This document shows positions 12,001 through 47,127 of a stretch of 64,000 nt of DNA, one piece after another. Made by a program: the position numbers and the translations under genes. The stretch spans positions 12,440 through 76,439 of the forward strand of contig CAYJXI010000005.1 of NCBI GenBank assembly GCA_964374105.1, in the 5' to 3' direction. Every line of letters starts with the position of its first letter. Position 1 is the first letter of the stretch. The DNA is from an uncultured Planctomycetales bacterium. Its GTDB lineage: Bacteria > Omnitrophota > Gorgyraeia > Zapsychrales > JANLHA01. The notes beneath the pieces are model-generated. The model was given only the letters and a program-made list of their open reading frames with translations. It was not told the DNA's origin and searched no databases.

Positions 12001-12255
12001 ACAAAAGTGTCGGATAATGACCAACCAACACAGCCGCCCGGTGGTATTGATCTTAATCCGATGCATCTTAACTTGGAGATTAAACGGGATTCCCAGGGTG
12101 TGCCTTTGCCCGTGCCTTTACAGCCCATTGAACAGATGAAGATAGAAGGATTTGTTCCGATTATTATTAATATCACCCCCATAACTCGTCTACCCTTTTT
12201 CTTAGGGGCAAAGGAGGAAAATGGGGATCCATCTTTTGATTTAAGCCAGCGCTAG
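1..12255 (+). CDS. Giant multidomain protein A, 5'-truncated by the window (at least 4084 aa). It has helical repeats, three AAA+ (AAA_5/midasin-like) modules, an HExxH motif and a C-terminal vWA/MIDAS domain. It is a paralog of the gene at 13096..27921.
   Basis: Uninterrupted 12.2-kb frame-1 ORF running from the window edge. Walker A GPSGEGKT (4690-4713) with Walker-B-like IFLFNEIN (4882-4905). Walker A GYPGGGKTS (6670-6696) with LLDEG (6892-6906). Walker A NGRTGTAKTT (9001-9039) with ILLIDEANA (9244-9270). HELGH at 10366-10380. vWA MIDAS D-I-S-G-S at 11335-11349 and FTDGEET at 11647-11667. K/E/P-rich linker around 10935-11115. Conserved C-terminal tail at 12034-12183. Collinear with giant B at roughly 50-60% identity from about nt 2860 onward, estimated by eye. 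Confidence 0.85.
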   Translation: MLFILFFGTSNGQSKVIEGYDPITAMRLLYFYFKNYMLRNDKDIQQFGNFVERISSGEFIKERWTALSQLIESAEKGEMDKEFLNLGLLETIASSVGDDGVQGAYRELRRVATYVKTDKVASGIVTAEFLKEYSNEAKGSTSWAYMAIGTLFRAGIDKRYPAEEVRIFLDKLVNKLGDSWIGYQSLDSLVRSILYAKEIDSAVLDLPFLSSLLEFDNPGLVLQAYYHLAKAGVVNKENFEKIKNLFDIINDGIHRFNRSPDQIYQPLKKFIQTVKDKDLNRNVLNMDVLAAVFRNMPGNEDYLEREFTALEHLAETVKAEGLNEVILEPRVLLGSWTGAGTSFAWAAGHLRNLARAVKRGEVDSFVLTSDLLPFMAENLQYDIAYGALLLQAMAEAGFVTSENMKEVKEFITVLGQGIKKFRDDLASSGKLDESGVIPNMLGRLIELFQGYAQKQIDSFAVDFNFLKEFLNPERGRLNDAPANLLALNDFAEVLKRQGIDPKTIQYPIVEGTQLTKWGIQKFILGMGHAKIAPSLDIMSVYLDKGGINAENIKDLLDLGADLGGIVTGSYGLSPEALLEIKYLLKAAGPQVIDIPYLNSLLNTLWHNHYDVKASIPFFTMMGNHGLLRQDNSNGISSWLMGIFHLIKVNSGQQHFSVALEDVLAMLKLMLEHGIVKEDNLKILKEIIKEIPPDNAVHYYKGIEDLVNLGVVKPSDLEELKVLIHNMNKIKELSAPARRADQSYHYVIDLINKVKQENLSPAVLDIKLLNTLLVSLLKNRGDLLINSDLAFSELERLALTIKRERLTPEVFLNRDLLIALVEKANSISVAFHRYQEILIASGHEMSEMILGQILDGINIFYAHGRMSIEEYLNKLPTFRAAWPPSDFIRHSPLYAAVELLENKGSLIEEVEYGTDILLYEMVLRGRVYLLLLPPVLAEQLKGNTAREMLKDINPSNYEEELHLAALFVTLRQDIPLTAGLSYEEFLRIVKGDTTSKYTPIISAYIQKNVFGKVERLNLKQQDQIIALGIALHRAVLGMVKKDGGNENVITFRELIRFNENFSRFYLRDTGLKNVLELFILTATNIYGRVLDTSDKRKEFAKILIKLLEGHRELLGQAQVESEGLRGNLEDVVKNIMLFGDYEHLGRQPQAEEIVPEINIRALVERARQVGSASLLIVDDDNAVVVNSVLTQMSQEEDTVMIRLSMNGFSRRQELFGMYIPKTRLSETEINSQLTAVTEEEVKKALKDILGLKDEEMEAALNEWQKSLILNTNPLLREAVALYLKKGGQWREFMEWQDGLLVKLRDLAKKNPNKKFLLAMENISAAPDGVRLLLNPVLWERMVEIPEKGRRIELPENMNFILTMHKDTVIKDESFMNRPLVQYVPDMTQDDWQKYLTIKTGLPAAEAENLLTIFNQLGTVRFKEAVRFNGHDLLEIAQRIKGVSEEKTVKVPEFLLKEIYDYLLLRLRTPEDREKLTAVVSTFPGFEIQPPVIEVDRERAVVNFDGVQVKVSKAFIDYARRNPQKDFVALMNDRYRYIVTEMEMRLLSQLARATKGYGNKAIQLEGPSGEGKTEIGRVWARLLGFNLRERTINQDTNLSEFRGQIRPTKDGRYELYEPQYLTQIEEARNIFLFNEINTNESGSLYYWLFPEMTGRAEKALGEFAQTSDESIVKTARINQNNLWLFTVNPEANYYGRGMTPPIVSSHVTVFTMAQDLNNLPQVVEGHLRRNGLAKRLKPESLKYVVKRLAALHYHLKQFKAEKRLSSPQDITPRDIISVTDKFKQYLSEKMDPKQALLRAVEEVYVYTWQKGADVQLSRLEVKKFFGRTEQTTALEALTAALKQKERPVMVFGNATNDPQQIREYLKKAEPEAIIKDVPLSYFHRQRHFLGGLMPLAREKKEGLEAKIDALRPPLEEKLGLLPSLIQEARLNPNRTVFVLLYEYSHLNPQVAPLLNEFFQTGRIDGIEEMVTLAISEELINLLAAKGKWQQFREEFPGLLPEEMESLTEEQKLSFARWFYSQAPKNLRFVATSSSVEEIKLSPAEINRFLTVNISEEFNALWLERYLRQHISTKLKPYTALIGKIVRETFDLYVQQARNWEYEHNRLGRRDIAAFWERLDQESRLDEDKIKKLAFYTLAMGLRTKYREEWEEKIDYQEDLAAARDQERISYAQRKDGIYLIVDGLEFKTRLTKIPEEKFLAPTKAYVRQLASILLGLESGRPIITEGYPGGGKTSGIEDAAKRIGLKFYKDLMYEDIDLGEFLGRLSKEGQEFLVTALKHDANGHRVVKFLRAYAEGGIHLLDEGAVGTNSQEVITFLSVLSQLPAIDLGVFHPGLAGEVIKRHRDFHLAIAQNPAHSTAGREKILYSTDTLAHKIWTDNALDQEDALAIINYHLDKPDAVLQSLKEEMATIHREFTDVHPRSDEISPRQLIMIARILNQALEEGQDLDRAAFEGVMAAYLTGVSKQEFEQIWTKVSEITQGRFDRYLEEWKEPIDVKINDGYVQFNGMRLPKSVPKGNIQQNDVFIIEDLPFESRSLRAMALGVLMNMPVALLEEEGADAFDLIKKFAYLTGYELVPLWSHPQMTKMHLLTSLLPKFEALMDRYGIKREEAGQEFLMSLGFIARYLMEEKEYNAFNEEERQAQAQKLLFFHLMDAVPERQRVMLNELLTTSKIQLLNEKGEAVTYVLPEWVHIVVSSSLEHKFSSAFINRFLPIQVNTLENLDELIHVIQNRWPLVREEEVSWLKKVVGLVVRYEKQEAFGLHYGFSPQDIYKLAALIHLEKQRDMENNRFNTNPLYYFLKAITIVYGLGLAEDDAKIFEEKIVQEGLLGPLLNTTDKDKLEDIYARLLAQIKKDLVTLDREVYEIRIDVSQLGEGEGLKVANGMSIKRNGQGYIIETAGANIYQVSDQNLNDWTDLTKGNGELLVKQEGDHLVFQLKLIKSIGGVILPRDEFNRMRSLPENEVPTKEFIRFTPEMRMLGAAVLRGWQPVEDHLGRLRPPRVLLMNGRTGTAKTTFIRNLSRVWGVPLYILNAYEDMKVSDMTVGLKLEEGKFQVGIKEFLARVGKINGQRISVPSKTTSNRNILLIDEANAAPDILYSLAPLLRGEKKFTVEYAGESFEVEVDDEVLIALTFNPAETYAGRGAFDRELIAHAEKLWAPDPLRYPDLTLIDILREYHRRGITKAQQELKEQLPTVGLTMHEAFAKVSPYQETVKNLEHPALEELGKVGEEGPEKTQATEPPAVAPTLEPASVATPQVAEISYDVNIIRKNAQEFTKDQGHLDFARDILAGFLLALGDGEQGLNDVVLKAASILGPDVVEILQDIVSLYGREIVKESELKGKFLKLRRVFMAHDVALFMKRPKKRALIILSTEKVKRRLAMSDENLTRLGEDPAKYADLKSQAAVVGGEEYSRPGVSGFFEGEFAFAFEKAVRQELAAAGVETLKNVTFEEFVEWVAFHELGHVMDNLRLRVRGYKIPRLIRWTKLAHDVNASVIGLWLSENLELNSILFPLIFSPKAKEYALYELVNTIRKNKDKKSYYVQAAKGILNGILLKQKGEKEPLITDELEEDRIDAVKKLIEGLTSEELNKIAVELYQQPKEYLATAKAGAYKGKVLISDGGTSLEDINHGVDGTPDVDMEYEDGKAEMKIKTPKGKGPKVIEEPKGGKRKPDAGGKKGPKVKPEDSKKDEKDEEEETPAEETEEKEPDISGVKGDIIKLAQLSPGLISRFLEIFAGVPKIIKVYAESGDEIDIERIITGDLEPFFRQKIIQALASLSSGVTVDISGSTLSRGLHEAFVQMSKYYASLFYYSAVRNKEVEFSISAVGDSFHPLLDFRDSRNKMAVEEGLTKISTTNDYGGINTKEVLEGLKKKYADQKHKKYKMEMVFTDGEETSGLSFEELRQMADSLEKELGIDIVFIGLNTDDVENYSKFINLKNEVSAEQLVDLIIRISLLKVERGMLPHGNLAERFGMEDKAAKEDIGEEEFLRPESGLKKIPSKDSAILTKVSDNDQPTQPPGGIDLNPMHLNLEIKRDSQGVPLPVPLQPIEQMKIEGFVPIIINITPITRLPFFLGAKEENGDPSFDLSQR

Positions 12256-12844: not shown

Positions 12845-13095
12845 TCAACCCTCCTTCTTTTTAAAGGTTAAACGGATTATATCAGATCGCTTTTTCAAAT
12901 CAAGCGATATTTCAACTTTTTATCGACGGAGAGGATGGGTTTTAAAGAAGTCGAAGGAAATTCATAAAAAGAAATTGGGATATGGCAGACTCACCAGTCT
13001 GATAACCAAATTTGTTATTTATAATAATATATTTTATACTTATTCTGACTCATCTTTTAAATTATCTCAAAATTATTTTAAAGCTCTCATTCAAT

Positions 13096-16000
13096 ATGCG
13101 GATTTCAAAGCCTTTCCAACGATTTGTAGCTTTGTGGGTCTTGATTTCTTTTCTGGGGACCTCAAGCTATGCCCAAACCATATTAAGCCTTCCTGCCCCC
13201 GGCACAATGGTGACCGTAAGTGAAGGGTTTATGCCCCCCACCTTAAGGGGAGTCACCATCCATCCGGATAACCCATTGAGCTTCGACTTTATTTTGGATA
13301 TGGGAGATTCCCAGCTTAAAACGCAAGATCTGGAAAGGGAATCATCAAAACTGATCAAATATTTCCTTGCCTCGTTAACGATCCCAGAAAATGAACTTTG
13401 GGTCAATCTTTCTCCTTACGAAAAAGAGAAAATCATCTCGGATCAATTTGGTTTGACCGAGATGGGAAGGGATTTATTGGCGCAGGATTATATCTTGAAG
13501 CAATTGACGGCCTCACTCATCTATCCGGAAAATGAGCTGGGAAAGAAATTCTGGGATCGGGTTTATCAAAAGGCCTATGAGTTGTATGGGACGACCCAGA
13601 TTCCAGTCAATACCTTCAATAAAGTTTGGATTGTCCCCGAACGTGCGGTTGTCTATGAACAGGGGAATACTGCCTTTGTGGTAGACACGCATCTTAAAGT
13701 CATGTTGGAAGGGGATTACTTGGCCCTCAGTGAAAATTTTAAGAGAAGAAATTTTACGGAAGATCAATTGTTAGACAAAGAGGTCAAAGAGCTCGATCAA
13801 ATGAGCTCAAGTATCGTCAAAGAGGTGATCTTGCCTGAGATTGAAAGAGAGGTTAATGAAGGCGAGCATTTTTCCCAATTGCGGCAGATTTATCATTCGT
13901 TAATCCTTGCCGTTTGGTATAAGCAAAATTTGAAGGAGAGTTTATTAAGCAAGGTTTATGTCAATCAGGGAAAGGTGGATGGGGTGGATATCGAAGATAA
14001 GCAGAGCAAGGAGAAGATTTATGAACGGTACCTCGAGGCCTTTCAAAAGGGGGTCTATAACTATATCAAAGAAGATTACGATGCTCATACAGAAAGTTTG
14101 ATCCCCCGAAAGTATTTTAGCGGCGGGGTTCAGTTCAGCCTGGAAAAGGTCAAAGATCAGGCCATTTTGACCACGGTCAAAAAGAAAGAACAGCTGCCCC
14201 TTGAGTCCCGAAAACAATTGTTAAGACACATCGAACGGGCGCGTCAAGGGCGATTTAATCTGATCGCCGCAACCTTAGCGGAAACAACCGGGGATGCCCA
14301 AGCCTTCTTAAGGAATCACCTCGCAAGGCTTAAGACCGAAGATTCGGATCCTCTTTCCCAAGAGTCACGTTTAAATCAAGGATTATCTGAAATCACAACC
14401 GGATTGATCGGCAAACAGTATGAGGTGACTGATGTCCGCGTTGAAAAAGAACGTCTTATCCTCACCACCAAGGATAAAAAGACCATCTCTTTGAATGTCA
14501 GGGAAAAGAAATGGATAACTCAGGATGAGCTGGTTGCCAGATTCAAAACCGCCTTTACCGGCAATGGAAATTTGAAACTCATCACGGATATTGTCAAATT
14601 GTTGCCGGAAAAAATCCAGGTCTTGACCTTTGAAAATCTAGAAGGAGACCTCCTGGGGCTGGCCTCACGAAAATTAGGACTATTGGCCCTGCATCAAAAT
14701 TTGGCCAATAATCCTACCGCCCTTTTTCATGAAATCGGGGAGTTCTTGGGACAGAGTGAGGGAGAGGCACAAGCTCCTTTGAATCTGGAATTTAAGATCA
14801 CCAAAACTCAAGCCAAAACTTTGGGGTTTCTTTATGTCCGTGATCAAAAGGGGAGGGCCATGAGAAAGCTTGCCGTTGAACAACCAGAAGTCGTGGATCT
14901 TTTTCAAAAGGGGCCTAAGAATCATCATTACTTATTGAGGGGCATGCAAAGGATTCTCTTACCACAAGAGGATAAACAATTGTCCATCGAGATTAAAAAG
15001 GCCTTGCATGAAGAGGAGCTGAAAAAGGAGACCAGGGCTGTATTTAAGCGAATCGAGGAAGAGGCAACAGGCAACGTCTCTCTCCAAGATAAATTGACAA
15101 ACGATCAAGCCCAAATCAAAGAGATCCTTGACCTTTTAACTTTGGCTTATCTTGTTAGTCAAAGGGCGGTTGAGAGGGACTCTTTGAAGGCGATTTTTAT
15201 GGGAATCCTTCAATCCGATTCTAGCGAATTTAGGAATTCAATTTATGAATCATTGAAGAATCTTGGGCGATCAGCCATCTTAGAAGAGCTGAATCCACAC
15301 CTTATCCGTTATGATATTCTTGCCCGCCTGATTTCAAAAGGAGGAGAGCAAAGTCCTCTTTTGATCAACATCACCCGATCCTTTGCGCAAGCGAGAATTC
15401 TGACGGGAGACAACCTCGATAAATTTGAATTTCTTATGCTCAACGTTATCCCATCGAATTCTAAAAGGGGAGAGATCTATCAGTCTTTGTTAAAGCTCTC
15501 TGAGCTAGCTCTTGAAGAACTCGATTCCTATGTGATTTTAGGAATTCTGAATTTAGACTTCATAAGACAAATTTTAGATGAGTTAAAACAAGATACACCG
15601 AAGGCGCTTAAGATATTAATTGGATTAACCCAATTAGGAGTCATCACCCAAGAAGCTAAAAGGGATAAACTGAAAACCTTAAAGGCCCTCTTCAGCGGCC
15701 GTGATACAGAAAGGTATCGAAAACAGAAAATTTATGATAGCCTCCTTCATCTTACAGAGACATTTGCGGAAAAAGGGTTAAATCCGCAAATTCTTGATTT
15801 AGAAATCATCCGAGCAGATTTTCTGGCGATATCTAAAAATTCTGATGTCGCCATGGACACTTTTCTTGCCTTGACTGAGATAGGTTTCATTGAACCAAAG
15901 ACACTTAAGAGAATTAGTGGCCTTCTATCCACCCTTGGCATGGGTGATTATAATTCAAAAGACAATTATGACTCTTTGCTGAAATTAGTTAAAGCCGTTA

Positions 16001-19000
16001 AAACAGAAGACTTACCTTCCCAGTTGTTGGATTTTGATTTGTTGAGTACAGTTATCAGTTCTTCTAGGCTAGGTTCCCATCGAGTTCTTGACATGTTATT
16101 AGAAATGGGAAGGGCGGTTAAGACCAATGGGGTAAACCCTGTCATTGTCGATTTAACTCTGCTTAAGGCAGTATTGAATCATTCTCCTTGGCATTCTCAT
16201 GATGTCTATAAAGAAATCTTAAGTTTGGCGGAAACTGTTAAATCTCATAATTTACCTGTTGGAACCCTTTCCAAAGATACCTTAATGAGTCTCCTTGAAT
16301 ATACAAAGATAAATGCAGGAAAAGGAATTCAAATTTTGAAGGCACTTGCTATAGGCGGGGCCATCAAATATGGCGAACTTGATCGCGTAAGAGGTCTTTT
16401 TGTCATTTTTACCGGACAAGATTCGGAATTTTATAATTCTACTTTGCAACACATAGAGGAATCAATCCGGCTCCAATTGGACCCAGTTGTCTTGGACTTT
16501 GATTTGATGAAAAATATCTTTATGCAGAAAATAGCTCCTATTGATTCCAGTTTTAGGGCTTTAAGGGAATTAGCCGAGGCGGTCAAAACAAAGGGGCTGG
16601 ATCCCTCCTTATTGGATGTGAGGTTGCTTGGGGTCGTCACCAAAAAAGAACGGCCCGGATTAGCAGAAATGATTAACGGCTTAAAGACATTGGGAGAATA
16701 TGTCAACAAATACCACTTAGCGGATTTAAAGCACAATATTCTCGATGTCGAACTGCTTAAAACAATCGCAGAGGAAGCGGATGAGAATATTTATAAAAGT
16801 CTGGCCATGTTAGCCAGAACCGTCAAAGAGAAACACTTGGATGAAATAGCGTTGGATCGGGAACTTCTCATCGACATCATTCGCCATTCCAAAGGTTTTG
16901 CGACGGCCAAGCAATTGGATCTCCTGAGCAGTATAGCCAAAGCGGGGCTTCTTTATCCGGATAACCTAGAAAGATTTAAGGATTTTATCAGACAAATTAA
17001 CGAGTTGAGAGAATCCTTTAGAGACGATTTTTCGCAGATTTTTGAAGCCATCGCTGGTTTATTTGATTCCGCTCAAAAAGGGGAGATCAATGAATTCATC
17101 ATTGATTTTGATTTAATTCTTGGGATTTTAGAAAGATCACCAAAACCGATTTCTATTCTTAATTCCCTTAAGGAGATCGGCAAGGCGGTTAAGGTCAAAG
17201 GAGTGAACTTGACCGTGAAAGGCCTTGAGGGGCCGTCAGCGCAAGAACAGGAATATAATTTGGCAACAAAACTGATCCAACAATCGACACATACGGCCAC
17301 TATTCACAAATCTTTGGATCTTTTAACTGAATTGATTGAAAGCGGGTTTGTTCAGCGTGACATCAAACAGGCGGCTCGGTTTATTGCGTTGGTTAATGAG
17401 GATTTGTTTGATGTTTTGATAGAACTCCTTCGAAGTTTTCGAAAGAAAAATGTCAATACCTCGGTCTACGATCCGGATTTTATTTCCCAAGTGATTTCCA
17501 TGACTAAAGACGCAAATGTCTATGGGATTGAAGCCTTAAAGGAGTTGGCAGAAGCGGATATGTTGATCGAGGGTCGGAAAGAAGAAATTATGACATTTTT
17601 CCAAGATATTACTAACATTGTTAAAGAAGAGTTTAGAGCAGATGCCTTTCAGGTTTTAAGTCACTTTATCAAATCTTCAGTGATTAAGTTCGGTCGTTTT
17701 AAAGAGATCATTGATTTCTATAACAAAATTAATAAGTTAAATAATCAGCCTTGGCCTTATCAGGCAATTTTGGCTTTGGATAAAGTTGGTCGAGTAAGAT
17801 TCGAGAATTTAAAAGATTTAGAGACTTTGCTGTTGATCATTGATCAGAAAACCTCTTCTTATGATTATTTAAATTCTATCATTTCCTCAACACAATATGT
17901 CAAAGATAACGAATTGGCCACCGTCATCCTTGAACCTAAATTATTGACAGAAATCCTTGCCAAAGAAATTTCCCATCCTGAATTTAAAAAGATTCTCGAT
18001 CAATTGATCGAATTGGCCAAAGTGATTAAAAGGAAAGATATTCCCATTCAATTGGCTATCCATTTGGATTCCTTTCGATATATTTTTGGGAATTTTGCTC
18101 CAAACTATAGCCTAGAAATTTTTAAATGGTATACGGACTTTCTCAAAGAAAATAGTGAATCGCTTAACTCTGTCCTCATAGAAGGTATTTGGGATGGGAT
18201 GAAACTCGTTAAGACAATCAAGGAAGAACAAGGTGGTGAGGGTCAAAAGGAAGTCTCCCAATTTTTAAATTGGTTTAGTTCGCATTTTGTAAAGGATAAA
18301 GAATTGTTTCCTTTGCATTTTAGTTTCAAGACATTTGCCGAGGAAGGCAAATTTACAATTGACCGGTTTTCGGTTGAGAACAATCTGTATTTACTCCCTA
18401 CCGAGATCCGCCAAAAGATTAAAGAAAAAGGATTTGAAGAGATCTTAAAAGAGGTAAATCCCTCCAATTATCTTGAGGAAGTTTATGCCGCCTCACTCTA
18501 TGTGGCTTTACGTCGAGATGTACAGGTTGCCATCGGTTTGACCTTTAAGGAATTCTTGGAGATCTTAAACGGAAAGGCCAATTCTCCCTTTAGTTCCCTC
18601 GTGACTTCCTTGATACAAAGAAAGGTCTTTAAAATGGAATTGGAGCTCACCCCCAGCCAGCAAGAACAAATCATTACTTTAAGTATTGCCTTGCATAAGG
18701 CCATGTTAGATCTCTTCCATGAATCGGCAACAAGCGGAAGCGTCACCTTCCGTGAGCTTATTCGATTCAACGTCAGTTTCAGTAAATTTTATTTGCAACA
18801 GATTGGGTTAGAGAATGTGATCGAGTACTTTATTTTAACCGCCTATAATATCTATGGCCGAATTATTGATACCCAAGAGAAAAAAGAAAAGTTTACAAAG
18901 GCCATGATCGGACTTTTATATTCAGATAAGTTTAAGCTTTTGCTGGGACAGGCGCAAATTGAATCCGAGGGAATCAGGGGGAAAATCTCCGAAATTATCC

Positions 19001-22000
19001 AGAATATCGTGGATTATGCGGATTATACGGATTTGAAACGCTTACCCCAGGAAGAGGAAATCCCCTTAAAAGTCACCATCAAGGCCGTGATTGAGCGGTC
19101 ATTACAGACAGACAGTGCTCCCCTCCTAATTGTTGATGATGACAATTCCATCCTAGTCGAGGAGGTTTTAGAAGAGTTGAGCCAACAAAAAGATACTGTC
19201 ATGATCCGCATCACGATGAATGCCTTCAGCCGGCGGCAGGAGTTGTTTGGCATGTATCTGCCTAAAAAGCTTTTGTTGGAAAGGCAAGTCAATGCGCTTG
19301 TTGAGACGGCCCCCCAGAGCGATATTCAAGCTGCCCTCAAAGAGATTTTGGGGTTAAAAGAAGATGAGGTCGACTCTTATTTTAAGGAATGGCAGAACAC
19401 CTTGAGTTTAAGGGAAGACCATTTTCTGCGTCAGGCCATAGCCACCTATTTGAATAATAAAGAAGATTGGCGTCAATTTATGGAATGGAAAAACGGGGTT
19501 TTGGTCAGGTTAAAGGAGAAGGCCAAGAAAGACAAAAAGAAAAAGTATCTCATCAATCTCGATAACATCTCCGCCGCCCCGGATAGTGTGCGGCTCCTTT
19601 TGAATCCTGTTTTGTGGGAGCGAATGGTGGAAGTTCCTGAAAAAGGAATGCTTTTAGAATTACCCTCTAATTTGAATTTCATCATGACCATGCATAAGGA
19701 TACAAAAATCATCGACGACGCATTTATGAACCGTCCCTTAGTCCAACACGTTGCCCCTTTGAGTCAGACAGATTATATTCGTTATTTGACAAAAAGCGTC
19801 GGCCTTCAAAAACAAGTGGCCGAACATCTATTGGGAATATTCTCTGAGATTAAAAGACAAGGATTTTTCGAAGACCCGAGACTCAATTTTCATGATCTTA
19901 TCGAAATCGCCAAACGTGCGACACGGGTTTCCTTAGAAAATGATTTGAAACAGGAAGATGTCCTTTTTAAAGAAGCCTTTGATTACCTGTTCTTAAGGAT
20001 GAGGAATGAAAAGGATCGAGACAATTTGAAAAAAATCTTGTTCAGTGACAAAGAGCAAGGTCTTTATCATCCTCTTAAGATCACCGTTGATCGAGAGAAT
20101 GGTGAGATCAACTTTGATGGGGTGAGGCTTAAAGCCTCACCAGCATTCTTGGGTCATTTAAAAGAAACCCCCGAAGCTGATTTTATTAAATTGATGAATG
20201 ATCATTATGGATATATCGTGACGGAATTAGAGATGAGTATTCTTTCTCAGTTGGCGCGTTCCATGAAATATGGTAACAGGGTCGTTCAGTTGGAAGGGCC
20301 TTCCGGGGAAGGGAAAACGGAAGTCGGCCACGTCTTTTCTAAGCTCATTGCTCTTAATCTGGTTGAGCGCACAATCAATCAAGAGACAAATCTGTCAGCA
20401 TTCCGCGGGATCATTCGGCCCACCAAAGCAGGGCGTTATGAATTGTATGAGCCGGTGTATTTAGAACACATTGAAGAGGGCGGGAATTTATTTTTATTGA
20501 ATGAGATCAATACCAATCAATCGGGGGGATTGTATTATTGGCTGTACCCTGAGATCACTCAGCGTGATCACAAAACATTAAGTGAATTCGCTGACATAAG
20601 CGATGAGTCAATCGTCAAAAGGGCCCGGATCGACCAAAATAACCTTTGGCTGTTTACCGTGAATCCGTATGGGTTTTTGGGGCGCGGCATCACTCCTCCC
20701 ATTATCCCCTCCCAAGTCAGTATCTTTTATATGGCCCAGAATCCCGATTCCCTTCCCGAAGTCATCCGCGGTTATTTTGAACGAAACGGTTTACGTGAAG
20801 TTCTTTCCGGTGATTTGTTCAAAGAATATGTGGATAAATTGACATCCATCCATAAGGCCTTAAGAGAGCTTAAATTCACCTATCGATTGCGTTCTCCCCA
20901 AGACATTACCCCACGGGAACTGATCAGTGTCACAACAAAATTTCGCAACTTCATGGTAGAGGAAAAATTAACGCCTAAGGGAGCCTTCCAACGCGCCGTT
21001 GAGGAAACTTATACTTATGTTTGGAAGAATTTAGAGGATATAAAACTGGTGCGTTCGCTGGTCAATGAGATCAATGGGCATGCGGGAAATACGTATCAGG
21101 ATAGAGCGTTTTTGAATAGGGTTGTTGTCGAAGCAACTCGGCCAGTGATGATCTTTTTAACGGCCGCCAATGATCTTACCCAATTGGAAGGATCCATCCA
21201 GGAAAAAGATCCCAAGGCCCAGCTTTTTCATATTCCGTTAAGCTATTTTCACCGCAACCGGCAGTTTGTAGGAGGATTGATTCCTAAGGGGGAAAAAAAG
21301 GTTTTGAGCGGCCGATGGAAAGAAGTCCATCAGTTGACAGCGCAGTTAGAAGAGGGGTTAGGGATCATCCCGGAATTGATCAAAGAGGCGAGGTTTAATC
21401 CCGAAAGAAACATTTATGGCATTTTATATAATTATACGCATCTTAATCCTCAAGTGGCTCCCTTATTGAACGAATTTTTCCAGAAAGGATACTTAGAGGG
21501 AATCGAGGAGCTTATCACCTCAAGGGTCAGTGAGGAATTGTTAAGGCAACTGAAATCACAACCTCAAACCATTTGGCAACAACTCCGAGGAGACTTCGCT
21601 GGCAGTCTTCCCGGGGAGATTGAGCAATTGTCAGATGAAGAAAAACTTTCCTTTGCGCGGTGGTTTTATTCAAAAGCACCCCGGAATTTACGATTCATCG
21701 CAACAGGCTCGAGTGTAGAAGAAACCAGTTTAAGTCCGGCCGAATTGAATCGCTTCTTGGCGGTTAATATTTCTGCAGAAATGGACCTTGAATGGTTAGA
21801 GAATTATTTGGGAAATAAAATAAGTCAAAATGGCTTGGATGCTTATGAATCACAGATCAGTCAAGTGGTGATTCCCGCCTACCAATTCTATCAGCAACAA
21901 ATGGCCCTTTATGAATACGACCACAATCGTTTGGGGAGAAGTGATGTTGATGCTTTTATTGAAACCTTGAAGGAATATCCCAGCCTCAATCCTTCTCTTA

Positions 22001-25000
22001 TCAAAAAATTAGCTTTTTATACATTCGGGATGGGATTAAGGCCGAAATTCAGGGATGAATATCAACTTAAGATCAAATATCAGGAAGAATGGGGACAGCA
22101 GACCAATCTCTTTCGATATGAAACCAGAGCAGATGGTATTTATCTTATTGTGGATGGGATTGCCATGAAAACACAACTGAAAGAGATCCCTAAGAAACGA
22201 TTTTTAGCCCCCACCAAAAATTTGATCCGGCAGATGGCCTCCATGCTGATAGGTTTAAAAAGGGGGAGGATCCTCATTATCGAAGGGGAACCTGGAGGAG
22301 GCAAAACCTCAGGATCAGAGGATCTGGCCGAGCGCTTAGGGTTGGATTTTTATAAGGAGCTCATGTACGAGGATATCAATCTGGGAGATTTTTTGGGAAG
22401 GCTTTCTAAGGAAGGGAATGAATATGTTCTGACAGCTTTAAAGAAGGATCCTCAGCAAAGACCCTTGATCAGATTTTTGAAGGCTTATACACAGGGAGGG
22501 TTATTTTTATTAGATGAAGGGGCTATTGGTTTTAACTCCCAAGAGGTGATTTCCTATCTAACGGAATTAGCCCAATTGAAGGAATTTGATTTAGGCTTGT
22601 TTCATCCGGGATTAAAGGGGCAGGTTTTGAAACGTCATCCCCAATTTTATTTGGCGATGGCCCAGAATCCGGCCAAAACAACCAAGGCCAGAAAGCCGGT
22701 TCCCTATCGAGTGGATACCCTGGCTCACAAGACATGGTCAGACAATATCCTTGATGAAGAAGATGCGATCCGAATCATGGATTATTATCTCACCAGTCCT
22801 GAAGCCATCTCTCTGGATTTGAAAAAGAAAATCGTCAACATCCATATCCAGTTTTCCCGGCAGCATCCCCGGAAAGAAGAATTAAGCCCCCGACAAATCA
22901 TTATGATCGCCCGACTTTTAACCCGGGCCATTGAGGAAAATGCCAATCTTGAGCGAGCCATTTTTGAAGGGCTTATGCTGGGGTATTTAACCGCCGAGTC
23001 GCAAGAGGAATTCACCAAATTATGGTCGGTGGTTGACCAGCAAATGCAAGGGAGGCTCAATCGATATTTAGCCGAATGGAAAGAGCCAGTGAAGATCGAA
23101 AAAGAAGACAATTTTATTCGATTAAATGGAACTAAATTGACCAAATCGGGGACGGAAGGCAATGTCTCGGAGAGAGACTTCCAAATCATTGAGAATTTAC
23201 CTTCCCAAAGCAAGAGTCTTCGGGCGCTGGCCTTAGGGTTATCCATGAATATGCCGATTGCCCTTCTTCAAGAGGATGGGGCCGATGCCCTCGATTTAGT
23301 TAGGAAATTCGCCTATAAGGTCAACTACGAACTTCATACGTTATGGTCTCATCCGCAAATGACTAAGATGCACGTTCTGGAAAACTTATTGCCCAAATTC
23401 AAAGCCCAATTTGATCGTTACGGGATCAAAGAGGAAGAGGTCACGAAAGAATTTATTATGGGATTAGGATTTTTGGCCAGGCATCTCATGAGACACGCAG
23501 AATATGAAAAACTTGACCTTAAGCAAAAAACCACCCAAACCCAGAAGATTCTTTTCTTTCATTTGATGGATGCGATCCCAGAGAAACAGCGGGTTTTATT
23601 AAATGATTTACTGAATACAAACAAAATTGAACTGATCGATGAGAAGGGAGAAGCTGCCATTTATATTTTACCCGATTGGGTGCATATCATGATCTCCTCT
23701 CCGGTAGAACACAAATTTTCCTCCGCATTTATCAATCGTTTCTTACCCATTCGGATTTCCCCGATTTCTGATTTAGATGAGATAACAACCGTCATTCAAA
23801 ATCGCTATCCTTTGGTTAAGGAAGATGAGGTTGTTTGGCTAAGACAAGTTGCAAACACGGTTTATGAATTCGATAGAAATGGTGTCTTTAGTCTTCATTA
23901 TGGATTTAGCCCCCGGGATGTTTTCAAACTAGCCGCCTTGGTGCAATTAGAAAAGCAGCGGGATATCGAGATGGGGAAGTTGAGTGACGATCCGCAAAAC
24001 CCAAAACGAGTTTCTCTCTACCAGAATCCCCTGTATTATGTGATGAAGGCATTCTTTCTGACTTATGGGTTGGGGATCAAAGAATCCGACTACGCGATCT
24101 TTGAGAACGAAATCATTAAGAAAAAGTTCTTAATGCCATTGGGGAAGGGGAGAGAACCACGCATCGTCAATGAGGTGTATGAAAAGATCAAAGCCAGAAT
24201 AAAGGAAGATTTGTCCGGATTAGAGACCGAGGACTATATCTTGAGGGTGGATATAGGTCAGATGGTGGAAGGCAAACTTGAGACCCTCCCGAATGGAATG
24301 AATATAACTCGAACGAAGGGAGGTTTTATTATTACCACTCTGTCGGCCAATGTCTATCAAGTGAGAGATGACCAATTGAAGGATTGGGTAAACCTAAATC
24401 CGGACAGCGATGAATTTTCTCTGAAGCTTGAAGAAAATCAAATGATTTTTAAATTAAAATTGATAAATAGTATCGGAGGGGTCTTCATCCCCAGAGATGA
24501 AGTCAACCAATTATTGAGTTTACCGGAAAGAGAAGTCCCTACCAAAGAATTTATCCGCTACACTAAAGAAATCCGATACCTTGACTCAAGCATTTTGCGG
24601 GGATGGCAAAGGTTCAAAGATTATAGCAATCGGATGGAGGCCCCCCGGGTTCTTTTGCTGAATGGCCTCACCGGGACAGCCAAAACAACCTTGATTAGAA
24701 ATATTGCCAGAATTTGGGGGGTGCCCCTGTATATCCTTAACTCCTTTGAGGAGATCAAAGTGTCGGATTTGACCGTGGGACTTAAGTTGAGGGAAGGGAA
24801 GTTTCAGGTCGGAATTAAGGAATTTTTGGCTCGGGTGGGTAAAATCAACGGGACTCGCTTCAGCATCCCTTCCAAAACCACCTCAAACCGTTCTATCCTT
24901 TTAATTGATGAGGCGAATGCCAATCCAGAAATCCTCTATGCCCTAGCCCCCTTATTCCGGGGGGAGAAAAAGTTTACTGTGGAATATGTAGGGGAAAGTT

Positions 25001-27921
25001 TTGCGGTCGAGGTTGATAGTGAGGTGATGGTTGTTTTGACATTTAATCCTGTCGAAACTTATGCCGGGCGGGGAAAATTTGCTGATGAAATTGTTTCGTT
25101 TGCAGAAAAACTTTGGGCGCCGGATCCTCTCAAATACCCCGAGGAGGTTTTGGTGAGTATTTTGCAGGAATACCACCGGCGGGGCATCACAAAGACTCGT
25201 CAGGAAATTGAACGGCAACTGCCCAGTTTGCCCTTGATCTCTCAAGAAGGGTTTAAAGAGGTTGAGCCCTCTATGGTGGAAGTCAAAGCCGCGCCCCATC
25301 CTTTGGTGGAAAGTTTAGACTCGGTTTTGGGAGGGCCTAAAGAACCAGAAGCTGAGGGTGAGAAACCCGAGGTCAAGATAGAAGAGAAGAAACCCAAAGA
25401 AAAGATCCAGATCAAGATAGAGTACGATACCACACTGATCAAAGAGGCGGCCAAGCAATTTAAAAAGGAAGAGGGTCCTTTGTTCTTTATCGAGAATATT
25501 TTGAATGGATTTCTCTCTGCGATCGCCAATGGCAATTCTGATGAAGAGCTAAGAGAGTTGGTTTTAAAGGTTTCCGATCTCCTCGGAGTGGACGTTGGGC
25601 GAGTAGTTAAAGATATCATCGAGATTTATCAAAAGAATTTGATCAATGAAGGTGAGCTCAAAGATGCACTTCTTGAATTAAGACGAGTTTTTATCAAAAG
25701 AGGACTTGCCGTATTTATGAAAATCGTAGTCAAGGATGATACCCCGTTCATTGTTTTGACGACTGAAGAAATTCAGCGCATGAAGAGATTAAAAGCCGAT
25801 GATTTAAGCAAATTGGGAGAAGATTGGGTCAAATATAAAAGGAATCTTCCTCGGACGTTGGTAGTCAAAGGGAATAAATATAAACGCCCGGGAGTGAGTG
25901 GATTTTTTGAAGGGGAATTGGCCTTCGCCTTCGAAGAGGTGGCTCAGAATGAAATGATAACAGCCAAAGTATCGGCCATTTCGAATGTGACTTTTGAAGA
26001 ATTCGTTGATTGGATTGCCCTCCATGAACTAGGACATGTCATGGATAAGATGAGACTTAAAGTGAGGGGATTTGAGGTTCAAGAAAAGAAACCCTGGGAA
26101 AAATTGATTCAGGATGTGAATACCTCCGGAATCGGGGTATGGCTTTCTCAGAATATTGAATTGAATGCGATGATCTTACCCTTGATATTCTCCCCGAAGG
26201 CTAAAGAGTTTGCTTTATACGAACTGGTTCATATGGCCAACACCTTAAGAGATGTTAATGATTATTATTTTCAAGCCGCCCGGGGAATCTTGAATGCCCT
26301 TATGAAATACCTCTACGAAAAGGGGGAAATCAAAGAGTTGGTTGTATTAGAAGAAGATTTTACCGATGAATTTGACCGGCGACTCAATTTGATCAAAAGT
26401 GTCATCGAGAAAATGACTTCTAAGGAGCTGAATGCGATGGGGGCGGTTATTTATCAGAATCCGGCTAAGTATTTCTTTGAGGTCAAGGGAGGAAAGTATA
26501 AATCGAAGATTCTAGTCATGAGCGGTCCCGATAGTATTGAGGAAGTTTCTTTGGGGGTAGATGGGATACCGGATGTCGATATGCAGTATGCAGAGAAAGA
26601 GGGTGAAGTTGAAATTACAACTCCACCCAGCGAAGGGAATAAGTCCAAATTGATTCGGGAACCGAAATGGAGTGAGGCCACAGAAGAAGGAGAAGAAGGC
26701 CCTAAAGGGCCGCCGAGCGGTCAAAAAGGCGAAATAGAGGAGGCGGTCAAGGAAGAGGAATTGACTTCAGGATTAAAGAAACAAATTGAGACTTTGAAGG
26801 AAATCAATCCTAATCTGATTTCTCGATTTTTAGAGAATTTTGCGGGGACCCCAGAGACGATTAAGGAATATGCTGATACCGGAGACCGGATTGATGTAGA
26901 AAGAGCCATGATAGGGGATCCGGAGGCCCTCTTTACCGAAAAGACCTTGGAGAGACTCGCGCAATTAAGTATTGGCTTGACGATTGATGTCAGCGGAAGT
27001 GTCCGTGGGTGGTTGCTGAATCAGTTTATTACGATGGCTCGGTATTATTCGTCTTTATTTCATTATGCTTCAGTGAAAAATAAAGAAGTCGATTTTTCGA
27101 TCAGTGCGGTTGGGGATTTTTTTCATTCTATTTTGAAATTTATCGATGCCAGAAACAGGGAGGCCGTGGAAAAGGCCTTAGATAAGATCTCTGAGATTCG
27201 TGACAGCGGGGGGATCAACACGCTATCCGTGATCAAAGGCCTTCGAAATAAGTATTCACAGCAAAAAGACAAGGTTTATAAGATGGAGATTGTCTTAACC
27301 GATGGCGGGGAAACCTCGGGAGTCGCTTTTAAGGAATTGCGGGAGAAAGTTATTCAATTGGAAAAGGACCTCGGGATCGATGTGGTTTTTATTGGGATCA
27401 ATACAAAAGAGGTCAGTAATTATTCTAAGTTTATCGTTTTGGATAAAAATCCAAAGGCCGAAGATCTGATTCAATTGATTATTAAACTGTCCATGTTAAA
27501 AAGCCGGGAAGGCATGTTGCCTTACGGGGATTTAGGTGAGTTATTAGGAATCGTCCCCAAAAAGAAGGGGGAGGCCCCCGAGGCCCAATTAATCCCTGAG
27601 CGTCAATCTCCAAATCCAACTTTAAAAAGATCTGATAAAGCCATATTGACCAACCAACCACCCGGAGGGATTGATCTTAATCCAGCCAATTTCCAATTAG
27701 AGATCAAGCGGGATGAAAACGGCATCCCTCTTCCTATTCCTTTACAGCCGATTGAACAAATGAAGATTGATGGTTTTGTACCCATTATCATCAATATCAC
27801 ACCCATTCATAACCTTCCCAACATTTTTGGGGGGCTTCCGAATAAAGACAAACCCTCTGACTCCTCGACCTTAAGTTATCGCCAGGAATCGGAGATGGAA
27901 TTGGTGGGTACTACCCCTTAA
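13096..27921 (+). CDS. Giant multidomain protein B (about 4941 aa). It has a Sec signal peptide, an N-terminal domain, an array of ~45-aa helical repeats, three AAA+ (AAA_5/midasin-like) modules, an HExxH motif and a C-terminal vWA/MIDAS domain.
   Basis: Uninterrupted 14.9-kb ORF. The ORF track starts at TTG 13012, but the in-frame ATG at 13096 gives MRISKPFQRFVALWVLISFLGTSSYA|QT, a textbook signal peptide. Walker A GPSGEGKT at 20296-20319 with LFLLNEIN at 20488-20511. GEPGGGKTS at 22285-22311 with LLDEG around 22510-22521. NGLTGTAKTT at 24661-24690 with LIDEANA at 24901-24921. HELGH at 26023-26037. MIDAS D-V-S-G-S at 26986-27000 and LTDGGE at 27295-27312. Conserved C-terminal tail at 27658-27807. 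Confidence 0.85.
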   Translation: MRISKPFQRFVALWVLISFLGTSSYAQTILSLPAPGTMVTVSEGFMPPTLRGVTIHPDNPLSFDFILDMGDSQLKTQDLERESSKLIKYFLASLTIPENELWVNLSPYEKEKIISDQFGLTEMGRDLLAQDYILKQLTASLIYPENELGKKFWDRVYQKAYELYGTTQIPVNTFNKVWIVPERAVVYEQGNTAFVVDTHLKVMLEGDYLALSENFKRRNFTEDQLLDKEVKELDQMSSSIVKEVILPEIEREVNEGEHFSQLRQIYHSLILAVWYKQNLKESLLSKVYVNQGKVDGVDIEDKQSKEKIYERYLEAFQKGVYNYIKEDYDAHTESLIPRKYFSGGVQFSLEKVKDQAILTTVKKKEQLPLESRKQLLRHIERARQGRFNLIAATLAETTGDAQAFLRNHLARLKTEDSDPLSQESRLNQGLSEITTGLIGKQYEVTDVRVEKERLILTTKDKKTISLNVREKKWITQDELVARFKTAFTGNGNLKLITDIVKLLPEKIQVLTFENLEGDLLGLASRKLGLLALHQNLANNPTALFHEIGEFLGQSEGEAQAPLNLEFKITKTQAKTLGFLYVRDQKGRAMRKLAVEQPEVVDLFQKGPKNHHYLLRGMQRILLPQEDKQLSIEIKKALHEEELKKETRAVFKRIEEEATGNVSLQDKLTNDQAQIKEILDLLTLAYLVSQRAVERDSLKAIFMGILQSDSSEFRNSIYESLKNLGRSAILEELNPHLIRYDILARLISKGGEQSPLLINITRSFAQARILTGDNLDKFEFLMLNVIPSNSKRGEIYQSLLKLSELALEELDSYVILGILNLDFIRQILDELKQDTPKALKILIGLTQLGVITQEAKRDKLKTLKALFSGRDTERYRKQKIYDSLLHLTETFAEKGLNPQILDLEIIRADFLAISKNSDVAMDTFLALTEIGFIEPKTLKRISGLLSTLGMGDYNSKDNYDSLLKLVKAVKTEDLPSQLLDFDLLSTVISSSRLGSHRVLDMLLEMGRAVKTNGVNPVIVDLTLLKAVLNHSPWHSHDVYKEILSLAETVKSHNLPVGTLSKDTLMSLLEYTKINAGKGIQILKALAIGGAIKYGELDRVRGLFVIFTGQDSEFYNSTLQHIEESIRLQLDPVVLDFDLMKNIFMQKIAPIDSSFRALRELAEAVKTKGLDPSLLDVRLLGVVTKKERPGLAEMINGLKTLGEYVNKYHLADLKHNILDVELLKTIAEEADENIYKSLAMLARTVKEKHLDEIALDRELLIDIIRHSKGFATAKQLDLLSSIAKAGLLYPDNLERFKDFIRQINELRESFRDDFSQIFEAIAGLFDSAQKGEINEFIIDFDLILGILERSPKPISILNSLKEIGKAVKVKGVNLTVKGLEGPSAQEQEYNLATKLIQQSTHTATIHKSLDLLTELIESGFVQRDIKQAARFIALVNEDLFDVLIELLRSFRKKNVNTSVYDPDFISQVISMTKDANVYGIEALKELAEADMLIEGRKEEIMTFFQDITNIVKEEFRADAFQVLSHFIKSSVIKFGRFKEIIDFYNKINKLNNQPWPYQAILALDKVGRVRFENLKDLETLLLIIDQKTSSYDYLNSIISSTQYVKDNELATVILEPKLLTEILAKEISHPEFKKILDQLIELAKVIKRKDIPIQLAIHLDSFRYIFGNFAPNYSLEIFKWYTDFLKENSESLNSVLIEGIWDGMKLVKTIKEEQGGEGQKEVSQFLNWFSSHFVKDKELFPLHFSFKTFAEEGKFTIDRFSVENNLYLLPTEIRQKIKEKGFEEILKEVNPSNYLEEVYAASLYVALRRDVQVAIGLTFKEFLEILNGKANSPFSSLVTSLIQRKVFKMELELTPSQQEQIITLSIALHKAMLDLFHESATSGSVTFRELIRFNVSFSKFYLQQIGLENVIEYFILTAYNIYGRIIDTQEKKEKFTKAMIGLLYSDKFKLLLGQAQIESEGIRGKISEIIQNIVDYADYTDLKRLPQEEEIPLKVTIKAVIERSLQTDSAPLLIVDDDNSILVEEVLEELSQQKDTVMIRITMNAFSRRQELFGMYLPKKLLLERQVNALVETAPQSDIQAALKEILGLKEDEVDSYFKEWQNTLSLREDHFLRQAIATYLNNKEDWRQFMEWKNGVLVRLKEKAKKDKKKKYLINLDNISAAPDSVRLLLNPVLWERMVEVPEKGMLLELPSNLNFIMTMHKDTKIIDDAFMNRPLVQHVAPLSQTDYIRYLTKSVGLQKQVAEHLLGIFSEIKRQGFFEDPRLNFHDLIEIAKRATRVSLENDLKQEDVLFKEAFDYLFLRMRNEKDRDNLKKILFSDKEQGLYHPLKITVDRENGEINFDGVRLKASPAFLGHLKETPEADFIKLMNDHYGYIVTELEMSILSQLARSMKYGNRVVQLEGPSGEGKTEVGHVFSKLIALNLVERTINQETNLSAFRGIIRPTKAGRYELYEPVYLEHIEEGGNLFLLNEINTNQSGGLYYWLYPEITQRDHKTLSEFADISDESIVKRARIDQNNLWLFTVNPYGFLGRGITPPIIPSQVSIFYMAQNPDSLPEVIRGYFERNGLREVLSGDLFKEYVDKLTSIHKALRELKFTYRLRSPQDITPRELISVTTKFRNFMVEEKLTPKGAFQRAVEETYTYVWKNLEDIKLVRSLVNEINGHAGNTYQDRAFLNRVVVEATRPVMIFLTAANDLTQLEGSIQEKDPKAQLFHIPLSYFHRNRQFVGGLIPKGEKKVLSGRWKEVHQLTAQLEEGLGIIPELIKEARFNPERNIYGILYNYTHLNPQVAPLLNEFFQKGYLEGIEELITSRVSEELLRQLKSQPQTIWQQLRGDFAGSLPGEIEQLSDEEKLSFARWFYSKAPRNLRFIATGSSVEETSLSPAELNRFLAVNISAEMDLEWLENYLGNKISQNGLDAYESQISQVVIPAYQFYQQQMALYEYDHNRLGRSDVDAFIETLKEYPSLNPSLIKKLAFYTFGMGLRPKFRDEYQLKIKYQEEWGQQTNLFRYETRADGIYLIVDGIAMKTQLKEIPKKRFLAPTKNLIRQMASMLIGLKRGRILIIEGEPGGGKTSGSEDLAERLGLDFYKELMYEDINLGDFLGRLSKEGNEYVLTALKKDPQQRPLIRFLKAYTQGGLFLLDEGAIGFNSQEVISYLTELAQLKEFDLGLFHPGLKGQVLKRHPQFYLAMAQNPAKTTKARKPVPYRVDTLAHKTWSDNILDEEDAIRIMDYYLTSPEAISLDLKKKIVNIHIQFSRQHPRKEELSPRQIIMIARLLTRAIEENANLERAIFEGLMLGYLTAESQEEFTKLWSVVDQQMQGRLNRYLAEWKEPVKIEKEDNFIRLNGTKLTKSGTEGNVSERDFQIIENLPSQSKSLRALALGLSMNMPIALLQEDGADALDLVRKFAYKVNYELHTLWSHPQMTKMHVLENLLPKFKAQFDRYGIKEEEVTKEFIMGLGFLARHLMRHAEYEKLDLKQKTTQTQKILFFHLMDAIPEKQRVLLNDLLNTNKIELIDEKGEAAIYILPDWVHIMISSPVEHKFSSAFINRFLPIRISPISDLDEITTVIQNRYPLVKEDEVVWLRQVANTVYEFDRNGVFSLHYGFSPRDVFKLAALVQLEKQRDIEMGKLSDDPQNPKRVSLYQNPLYYVMKAFFLTYGLGIKESDYAIFENEIIKKKFLMPLGKGREPRIVNEVYEKIKARIKEDLSGLETEDYILRVDIGQMVEGKLETLPNGMNITRTKGGFIITTLSANVYQVRDDQLKDWVNLNPDSDEFSLKLEENQMIFKLKLINSIGGVFIPRDEVNQLLSLPEREVPTKEFIRYTKEIRYLDSSILRGWQRFKDYSNRMEAPRVLLLNGLTGTAKTTLIRNIARIWGVPLYILNSFEEIKVSDLTVGLKLREGKFQVGIKEFLARVGKINGTRFSIPSKTTSNRSILLIDEANANPEILYALAPLFRGEKKFTVEYVGESFAVEVDSEVMVVLTFNPVETYAGRGKFADEIVSFAEKLWAPDPLKYPEEVLVSILQEYHRRGITKTRQEIERQLPSLPLISQEGFKEVEPSMVEVKAAPHPLVESLDSVLGGPKEPEAEGEKPEVKIEEKKPKEKIQIKIEYDTTLIKEAAKQFKKEEGPLFFIENILNGFLSAIANGNSDEELRELVLKVSDLLGVDVGRVVKDIIEIYQKNLINEGELKDALLELRRVFIKRGLAVFMKIVVKDDTPFIVLTTEEIQRMKRLKADDLSKLGEDWVKYKRNLPRTLVVKGNKYKRPGVSGFFEGELAFAFEEVAQNEMITAKVSAISNVTFEEFVDWIALHELGHVMDKMRLKVRGFEVQEKKPWEKLIQDVNTSGIGVWLSQNIELNAMILPLIFSPKAKEFALYELVHMANTLRDVNDYYFQAARGILNALMKYLYEKGEIKELVVLEEDFTDEFDRRLNLIKSVIEKMTSKELNAMGAVIYQNPAKYFFEVKGGKYKSKILVMSGPDSIEEVSLGVDGIPDVDMQYAEKEGEVEITTPPSEGNKSKLIREPKWSEATEEGEEGPKGPPSGQKGEIEEAVKEEELTSGLKKQIETLKEINPNLISRFLENFAGTPETIKEYADTGDRIDVERAMIGDPEALFTEKTLERLAQLSIGLTIDVSGSVRGWLLNQFITMARYYSSLFHYASVKNKEVDFSISAVGDFFHSILKFIDARNREAVEKALDKISEIRDSGGINTLSVIKGLRNKYSQQKDKVYKMEIVLTDGGETSGVAFKELREKVIQLEKDLGIDVVFIGINTKEVSNYSKFIVLDKNPKAEDLIQLIIKLSMLKSREGMLPYGDLGELLGIVPKKKGEAPEAQLIPERQSPNPTLKRSDKAILTNQPPGGIDLNPANFQLEIKRDENGIPLPIPLQPIEQMKIDGFVPIIINITPIHNLPNIFGGLPNKDKPSDSSTLSYRQESEMELVGTTP
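15280..17240 (+). repeat. Array of tandem degenerate ~45-50-aa alpha-helical repeats inside giant protein B, seen at the protein level. Consensus is roughly h..L..LAxxVKxxGLxPxxLDhxLL.
   Basis: Repeated segments with a similar pattern, for example NPQILDLEIIRADFLAIS, LPSQLLDFDLLSTVISS...LLEMGRAVKTNGVNPVIVDLTLLKAVL, LDPVVLDFDLMKNIF...LAEAVKTKGLDPSLLDVRLLGVV and INEFIIDFDLILGIL...IGKAVKVKGVNLTV. Giant A carries analogous repeats in roughly nt 300-2300. Confidence 0.4.
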
Positions 27922-44171: not shown

Positions 44172-44202
44172 CAGATCCAATGCGAACTTTTATAATCACC
44201 TC

Positions 44203-47117: not shown

Positions 47118-47127
47118 TTCTTAAACA

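Follow-up and report, generated by a model that had tools for sequence, protein, structure and literature searches.

The closest described counterparts of the element studied here, a near-identical C-terminal tail of two giant proteins (giants A and B), are C-terminal modules and signals of several kinds. Both giants are encoded in a 64,000-nucleotide stretch (the window) of contig CAYJXI010000005.1, from an uncultured bacterium placed by GTDB in the Omnitrophota. The C-terminal domains (CTDs) of type IX secretion system (T9SS) substrates are folded Ig-like beta-sandwiches of 70-100 residues (PMC11285876). Like them, the tail is a phylum-restricted, strictly C-terminal module found on many heterogeneous proteins that bear an N-terminal Sec signal peptide, a feature of T9SS cargo that a sequence heuristic recovers in giant B and its family. 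Unlike them, it measures about 60 residues, has no predicted fold (predicted template modelling score, pTM, 0.20) and is tied obligately to an N-terminal head; neither tail segment matches the CTD models TIGR04183 and TIGR04131 in an NCBIfam scan at E<=1. The sortase-type signals (LPXTG, PEP-CTERM, GlyGly-CTERM and MYXO-CTERM) are also C-terminal and consist of a tiny invariant signature, comparable to Gly-Gly-Ile here, with a more hydrophobic stretch after it. At about three times their length, the tail differs from them in having neither a transmembrane helix after the signature nor a C-terminal basic cluster.

MARTX toxins and LapA-like RTX adhesins resemble the family in placing conserved N- and C-terminal regions around variable modules, with short motifs at the boundaries, which in MARTX toxins are processing sites. 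They differ in being type I secretion system (T1SS) substrates that lack a Sec signal peptide and carry Gly-rich RTX repeats and a cysteine protease domain; no such repeats or protease occur in the giants, and Pfam scans of either giant returned neither HemolysinCabind nor any repeat family. Cellulosomal dockerins likewise provide a small C-terminal module, used for docking, that is common to many different enzymes. A dockerin is a duplicated, helical Ca-binding fold with a cohesin as its partner, whereas the tail has no Pfam match (Dockerin_1 included), no predicted helices and no partner family. The original prediction had recognised no sorting motif in the tail, and comparison with T9SS CTD, sortase-type, RTX and dockerin features bears this out. 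The giants already published for the phylum (Archaeovorins, Dockerin-type; long-protein catalogue) share signal peptides combined with metabolic and regulatory Pfam domains (10.64898/2026.06.07.730766; 10.1101/2023.11.21.568195). The tail, head and junction motifs are not described in the passages of these papers found by term searches, and the present family spans about 560 to 5,000 residues rather than giants alone. Literature found by term searches, including such passages of Omnitrophota papers, holds no mention of the three elements, and 'GGIDL' as a search term led to no relevant paper.

The tail is the final element of a protein family that is very large, lacks annotation and is confined to Candidatus Omnitrophota. 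In an exhaustive HMMER search of 1.84 billion representative proteins (clusters at 50% identity), a three-sequence tail profile matched 3,157 clusters at the E<=1e-3 threshold and 1,463 clusters at E<=1e-10. A profile search of the kind proposed with the original prediction does find the tail on other proteins. The match lies near the C-terminus in all of the best 150 clusters, with a median of 33 residues remaining after it (range 2-87). Every named protein match is a hypothetical protein of Candidatus Omnitrophota/Omnitrophica, and a scan of one genome per GTDB species gave 11 tail loci, 8 titled Omnitrophota and 3 'uncultured Planctomycetales'. The tail was not found in viral contigs. Pfam and NCBIfam hold no model for it (0 families in the NCBIfam scan of both segments at E<=1), curated protein libraries current to 2025-2026 have none for tail or head, and PDB sequence searches with either returned nothing. 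A word-index homology search with a single tail was uninformative, giving one match only, a 66-residue fragment.

Within the window, the shared 50-residue segments translate exactly as originally described and stand at the C-terminal ends of both open reading frames (ORFs). They are identical at 41 of 50 positions (82%), against 49% over the whole alignment of giants A and B, in keeping with the earlier claim that the tail is better conserved than its surroundings (16/32 identical, with gaps, before it and 9/22 after it). Only 2.2% of the 50-residue segments of the alignment reach 82% identity, and those other than the tail all lie in the AAA_5 core. At the 40 identical tail residues with degenerate codons, the codons match in 50% of cases against a background of 40%. 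The divergence of codons at identical residues therefore points to protein-level selection and not to recent gene conversion. Purifying selection on the tail is strong. A six-frame search found no third copy in the window.

The extent first proposed for the tail holds for its core but falls short of the conserved module, which runs a further 8-10 residues or so, to (L/F)(L/F)G. Across the family, the end-module comprises about 60 residues with the consensus (P/V)GGIDLNPxxLxLxIKRDxxGxPLPxxxQPIxxMxIxGFxPVIINxTPxxNLPxLLG, after which comes an extension that is short and mostly acidic. Two variants are distinguished: the window type, GGIDLNPxxLxLxIKRDxxGxPLP...QPIxxMxIxGFxPVIINxTP, and a second type, GGIDL(N/T)...G.(I/V).F..DPAML..LQNAPGFxPVIINIxP, both of which end in ...L..(L/F)LG. 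The most conserved parts are the invariant Gly-Gly-Ile and the beta-branched, strand-like GFxPVIINxTP. An N-glycosylation sequon was considered and rejected, as NxT is not conserved in the second variant. Between species, head and tail share about 55-70% of their residues. Exported sequences are not usually so well conserved, which suggests that head and tail interact with a conserved partner.

Most long tail hosts start with a conserved signal-peptide-like N-terminus, which is followed by a conserved head. The N-terminus has an n-region of net charge +3.5 and an uncharged run with a median of 19 residues, and [AVSGT]-x-A stands ahead of Q/E in 101 of 121 family members; the signal peptide call is a sequence heuristic, not SignalP. 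The head was found with phmmer in 55 of 73 long tail-bearing proteins. Its homologues number 1,454 at E<=1e-10, and Pfam assigns a domain to the head in none of them. It spans about 325 residues and is 55-65% identical across species. AlphaFold2 (AF2) predicts a well-folded head in the homologue P0331, a confident alpha-bundle with beta-hairpins (predicted local distance difference test, pLDDT, 80-96 over residues ~40-350). The modelled fold has no significant match in the PDB, the weak top matches being the ClyA-family pore formers NheA, MakB and ClyA (E 0.1-0.5). A GFxPxxIxG strand at the start of the head resembles the tail, but homology between the two was rejected (hhalign probability 4%).

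Head and tail are an obligate pair. Loci fetched from genomes and metagenomes (1.13 Mb) contain 104 tail ORFs, and all 60 of those with an intact 5' side have a head partner, 55 within the same ORF and 5 in a separate ORF immediately 5' of it on the same strand; the latter are therefore split genes. Every head-only ORF either runs into the end of its locus or has been separated from a tail ORF that lies downstream. Stand-alone small tail-only or head-only proteins on long contigs were considered and rejected, the candidates being split genes that arose through frameshifts or insertion of IS66. Such breaks are common in family genes (L012 9827-10378; L016 918-5956; L015 9878-20935; L056, L023 and L065): frameshifts separate the head from the remainder of the gene, or, in L015, IS66 has inserted; candidate causes are assembly errors, pseudogenes and programmed events. 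They also often stand in tandem, as does the window pair. The metagenomic contig ORJL010437495.1 bears three separate tail genes within 43.5 kb (L067, L073 and L087), and at many loci a new head gene begins right after a tail gene. Together these observations suggest high copy number and tandem expansion.

Between head and tail, the family members carry domains of cytoplasmic type. Pfam scans of 31 hosts returned phosphoglucose isomerase (PGI, 7.8e-195), phosphoglycerate kinase (PGK), phosphoglucomutase (PGM), malate synthase, NDK, CofD, CheR, starch synthase and five receiver domains, and P0038 also carries pyruvate phosphate dikinase (PPDK). Complete members are between 564 and about 5,000 residues long. 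Module boundaries are marked by a junction motif, either (A/S)SSP(V/I) or D-x-A-M-(L/V/M), with one type per protein. In 83 proteins, the first occurs 38 times against 1.4 expected from shuffles and the second 67 times against 5.4, a 12- to 28-fold enrichment. Within a family protein, a copy stands after the head and another ahead of the tail, and whole enzymes such as PGI, PGK and PPDK can be bracketed: PGI of P0050 (1471-1962) lies between motifs at 1412 and 1995, and PGK of P0036 (1957-2184), a protein that strings PGM then PGK, between motifs at 1936 and 2446. The copies after the head, between modules and before the tail therefore spell out a grammar of signal peptide, head, junction, (module, junction)n and tail. 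The layout of signal peptide, head, junction, cargo, junction and tail is common to every complete member examined. The junction motif may be a processing site or a linker signature.

The window giants follow this layout as far as they can be read. The tail profile matches within about 90 residues of the C-terminus in both, and giant B has the signal peptide and a head of family size; the head of giant A lies outside judgement, as its 5' end is beyond the window. D-x-A-I-L-T occurs exactly twice in giant B, after the head (DQAILT) and before the tail (DKAILT), while D-x-A-[IM]-[LMIV] has a single match in giant A (DSAILT) against 0.15 in shuffles.

In AF2 models the tail has no autonomous fold. 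For the last 106 residues of giant B (120-sequence alignment), AF2 gives a mean pLDDT of 69.8, and the model contains no strands and only three 3-residue helical turns. Confidence peaks at 81-84 on the GGIDLNP and PIIINITP stretches. Proline accounts for 10.5% of tail residues and glycine for 9.6%. The residues that follow the tail are few (median ~15) and have a mean net charge of -1 (negative in 48% of tails, positive in 20%). In roughly one case in five, the extension closes in ...LN. Among P0002-P0151, about one tail in five is followed by an acidic linker and then by a conserved extreme C-terminus of the form ...(E)(I/V/L)S(A/L/S)LN-COOH (e.g. ...KAREPEEISALN). Related extreme C-termini occur in giant A (...DLSQR) and giant B (...TLSYRQESEMELV). 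This conserved end may be a second recognition element.

The tail is thus a discrete, strongly selected, phylum-wide C-terminal end-module, independent of vWA and always paired with the signal peptide and head. We tentatively read it, giving the reading slightly less than an even chance, as a new extended recognition or anchoring peptide that would resemble a C-terminal sorting signal and fall outside the known classes tested. Sec would export the family protein by its N-terminal signal peptide. The tail would then probably be bound in extended form, by strand augmentation, by one conserved envelope component common to all members, which could also cut it at Gly-Gly. Such binding would fix or sort the exported chain at its C-terminus, and the N-terminus would fall to the head. 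The sorting or anchoring role originally suggested is supported in part, by the strict C-terminal position, the independence of cargo, the Sec-type signal peptide at the opposite end and the lack of an autonomous fold. The idea of a portable tag does not stand, given the head coupling in 60/60 genes, nor is the role helped by the cytoplasm-type cargo or by the neighbourhoods, in which no secretion machinery was seen in the window or recurred next to 96 related loci.

Several further points weigh against the recognition peptide. No dedicated secretion system, receptor or peptidase was identified in the 64-kb window, nor any T9SS machinery. Clustering of 622 neighbouring ORFs from the 96 loci yielded no recurrent dedicated partner gene and no recurring sortase, exosortase or rhombosortase; foremost among the clusters were generic ABC ATPases, a syntenic men operon, oxidoreductases, response regulators and TPR proteins. 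Within full-length P0331, the tail has a pLDDT of about 35 in the AF2 model, which is compatible with plain disorder. Docking of the tail on the head in cis was also tried by AF2 on P0331, a natural minimal head-tail protein of 649 residues, and gave no contact, a weak negative in view of the shallow tail alignment. For the signal peptide, Gly-Gly and the junctions alike, cleavage is presumed from sequence patterns. The obligate coupling to the head may mean that the tail has no independent addressing role. The cargo requires ATP or cytoplasmic cofactors (AAA+, PGK, PPDK and receiver domains) and fits the periplasm or cell surface poorly. The same paradox, of signal peptides on long Omnitrophota proteins with metabolic or regulatory Pfam content, is noted in passages of 10.64898/2026.06.07.730766.

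A dockerin-like alternative is that strand-prone tails bind each other or a common scaffold and so build a multi-enzyme coat or metabolon without any sorting. It would suit the many, often tandem paralogues, the strings of whole metabolic enzymes such as PGM then PGK, and the beta-branched, aggregation-prone GFxPVIINxTP, which has no fold alone; a surface 'coat' has moreover been proposed for Velamenicoccus in passages of PMC10066038. We nevertheless consider co-assembly rather unlikely. No cohesin-like partner family was seen, the tail shows no Pfam dockerin match, helices or Ca-binding repeats, and the invariant Gly-Gly-Ile and the many prolines of the tail resemble an enzyme or receptor recognition site more than a zipper. 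Conserved ends around variable, ATP-dependent modules of cytoplasmic type, together with a signal peptide and enriched junction motifs that bracket whole enzymes, would fit a processed and delivered polyprotein with MARTX-like logic, in which head and tail act as translocation or secretion elements and the modules are freed by junction cleavage in a prey or host cell. Predatory or parasitic lifestyles have been proposed for the phylum in passages of PMC10066038, and the best head fold matches are to pore formers. These matches are not significant, however; Pfam shows no protease domain or RTX repeats in either giant, no T1SS operon was found near the loci, housekeeping glycolytic enzymes make odd effectors and a 60-residue unstructured tail is small for a translocator, which together leave a delivered polyprotein distinctly improbable.

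The remaining explanations meet more direct contradiction. A C-terminal and unstructured tail is what a type I (RTX-like) secretion signal would look like, and passages of 10.1101/2023.11.21.568195 discuss giant Omnitrophota proteins alongside T1SS-like components. The family has an N-terminal Sec signal peptide, though, its giants lack RTX repeats, no adjacent operon of ABC transporter, membrane fusion protein and outer-membrane factor was found in the window or at the 96 loci, and the high conservation of the tail contrasts with the poor conservation of T1SS signals; we regard this origin as very improbable. Even less credence is due to a membrane tail-anchor or a tripartite sortase-type signal of motif, transmembrane helix and basic cluster. 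The order of invariant GG, spacer, hydrophobic stretch and charged end is superficially similar, and 15% of tails exceed the hydropathy threshold of 1.8, but the maximal 19-residue hydropathy has a family median of 1.54 and reaches 1.48 and 1.11 in the tails of the two giants, apolar runs are no longer than about 6 residues, three prolines interrupt the hydrophobic stretch and the extension is net acidic rather than basic. The transmembrane anchor was rejected on these grounds. The chance that the tail is the C-terminal part of the vWA fold, or a paralogue similarity kept by gene conversion, is close to nil. The tail does follow the vWA domain in both giants, and the order originally given is correct, but a gapped linker of about 50-80 residues that includes the junction motif separates the two. 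Synonymous sites in the tail are as diverged as elsewhere. The tail occurs on thousands of proteins without vWA: none of the 31 hosts scanned has the domain, and PGI, PGK, PGM, receiver domains and others take its place. Confinement to two paralogues as part of the vWA fold, the outcome against which the original prediction was to be judged, is thereby ruled out.

The recognition peptide can be placed within a wider scheme. The Omnitrophota are an abundant group of ultra-small bacteria, uncultured and with a probably predatory or parasitic way of life. Head and tail could be the two address labels of an unrecognised, phylum-specific protein-handling pathway, in which strings of cytoplasm-type enzymes and motors would be exported by Sec and then sorted, anchored or delivered, possibly into prey, and possibly processed at the junctions and at Gly-Gly, the tail representing a new C-terminal sorting class. 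We regard this scheme as possible, though on the unlikely side. The oversized proteins of the phylum are an open puzzle, and published catalogues note signal peptides on metabolic-domain proteins without an organising principle. Together with its obligate head and the junction motifs, the tail offers one, a sequence grammar for thousands of proteins of about 560 to 5,000 residues. Profile models of tail and head provide handles for phylogenetic profiling toward the missing machinery, and the grammar predicts cleavage sites that can be checked in existing proteomes. The site at which the enzymes act, be it the cell's own cytoplasm, the envelope or the prey, becomes a directly testable question. 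If the tail is a sorting signal, it would form a new class without a transmembrane helix, basic cluster or folded domain.

The cargo of the window giants is a single module within the family frame, composed of an AAA+ array, an E/K-rich linker and vWA with its metal ion-dependent adhesion site (MIDAS). Pfam places AAA_5 modules and a C-terminal VWA in both giants, along with a weak match to the Midasin AAA-lid; the cargo of giant A is dynein/midasin-related AAA+ plus vWA (AAA_5 4e-19, VWA, weak AAA_lid_7). There are three canonical Walker A motifs in each giant, and the MIDAS motif DxSGS is intact (DISGS in giant A, DVSGS in giant B). The order of several AAA_5 modules, an E/K/D-rich low-complexity stretch and vWA/MIDAS resembles that of midasin (Rea1/MDN1). 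An ATP-driven motor behind the export signal of giant B is topologically puzzling. The mechanical start of giant B, a TTG at 13012 (ORF 13012..27921), is probably wrong; the ATG at 13093 fits the family signal peptide and head, and from it the protein reads TILSLPAPGTMV...IHPDNPLSFDFILDMGD after the signal peptide MRISKPFQRFVALWVLISFLGTSSYAQ. The exact product from 13093 is absent from the protein collection, and the deposited gene call therefore uses another start. Coordinates of the features are given in the table.

Table. Features of giants A and B in the window (position 1 is the first nucleotide of the 64,000).
Feature	Position	Strand	Basis or remark
Giant A, 5'-truncated ORF	1..12255	+	4084 aa in the window (ORF list)
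vWA (MIDAS) domain, giant A	11332..11787	+	Pfam PF00092, E 1.1e-7
Junction motif DSAILT, just 5' of tail A	11986..12003	+	Translation
Tail core of giant A, PPGGIDLNP to GFVPIIINITPI	12034..12183	+	Translation; tail hidden Markov model (HMM) E 2.9e-31
Giant A module end TRLPFFLG, then variable acidic extension closing ...FDLSQR	12184..12252	+	Translation; family statistics for the extension
Giant B, complete	13093..27921	+	Probable ATG start at 13093, 4942 aa
Sec-type signal peptide of giant B, MRISKPFQRFVALWVLISFLGTSSYAQ	13093..13173	+	Predicted cleavage after SYA
N-terminal head domain of giant B, ~325 aa, LSLPAPGTMV...HPDNPLSFDF..., conserved, unannotated	13174..14142	+	
Junction motif DQAILT, directly 3' of the head, giant B	14155..14172	+	
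Best AAA_5 (dynein/midasin-related) module, giant B	24652..25056	+	Pfam PF07728, E 1.8e-19
vWA (MIDAS) domain of giant B, motif DVSGS	26980..27420	+	Pfam PF00092, E 4.4e-8
Junction motif DKAILT, two residues ahead of the tail, giant B	27634..27651	+	
Tail core of giant B	27658..27807	+	Translation; tail HMM E 5e-29
Giant B module end HNLPNIFGG plus variable extension ...TLSYRQESEMELVGTTP	27808..27918	+	Translation; similar endings in P0045 and P0074

The rest of the window is ordinary chromosome, with genes for RmuC, HisG, PRPP synthetase, L25, Pth, SSB, L9, DnaB and LysS. Its envelope genes are of the housekeeping kind and encode BamA, Skp, LpxD, LpxC-FabZ, LpxA, LpxI and a LolCDE-like transporter. 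All but the transporter form a compact outer-membrane biogenesis cluster at 44095-51446, in which BamA has 5 POTRA domains and LpxC and FabZ are fused. The Bam and Lpx gene content of the window therefore identifies the organism as a diderm with lipopolysaccharide. The McsA/McsB/ClpC protein-arginine-kinase quality-control system is best known from Firmicutes. In this diderm, with its BamA and Lpx genes, an operon at 58265-62282 encodes an McsA-like protein (UVR motif), McsB (ATP:guanido phosphotransferase) and ClpC.

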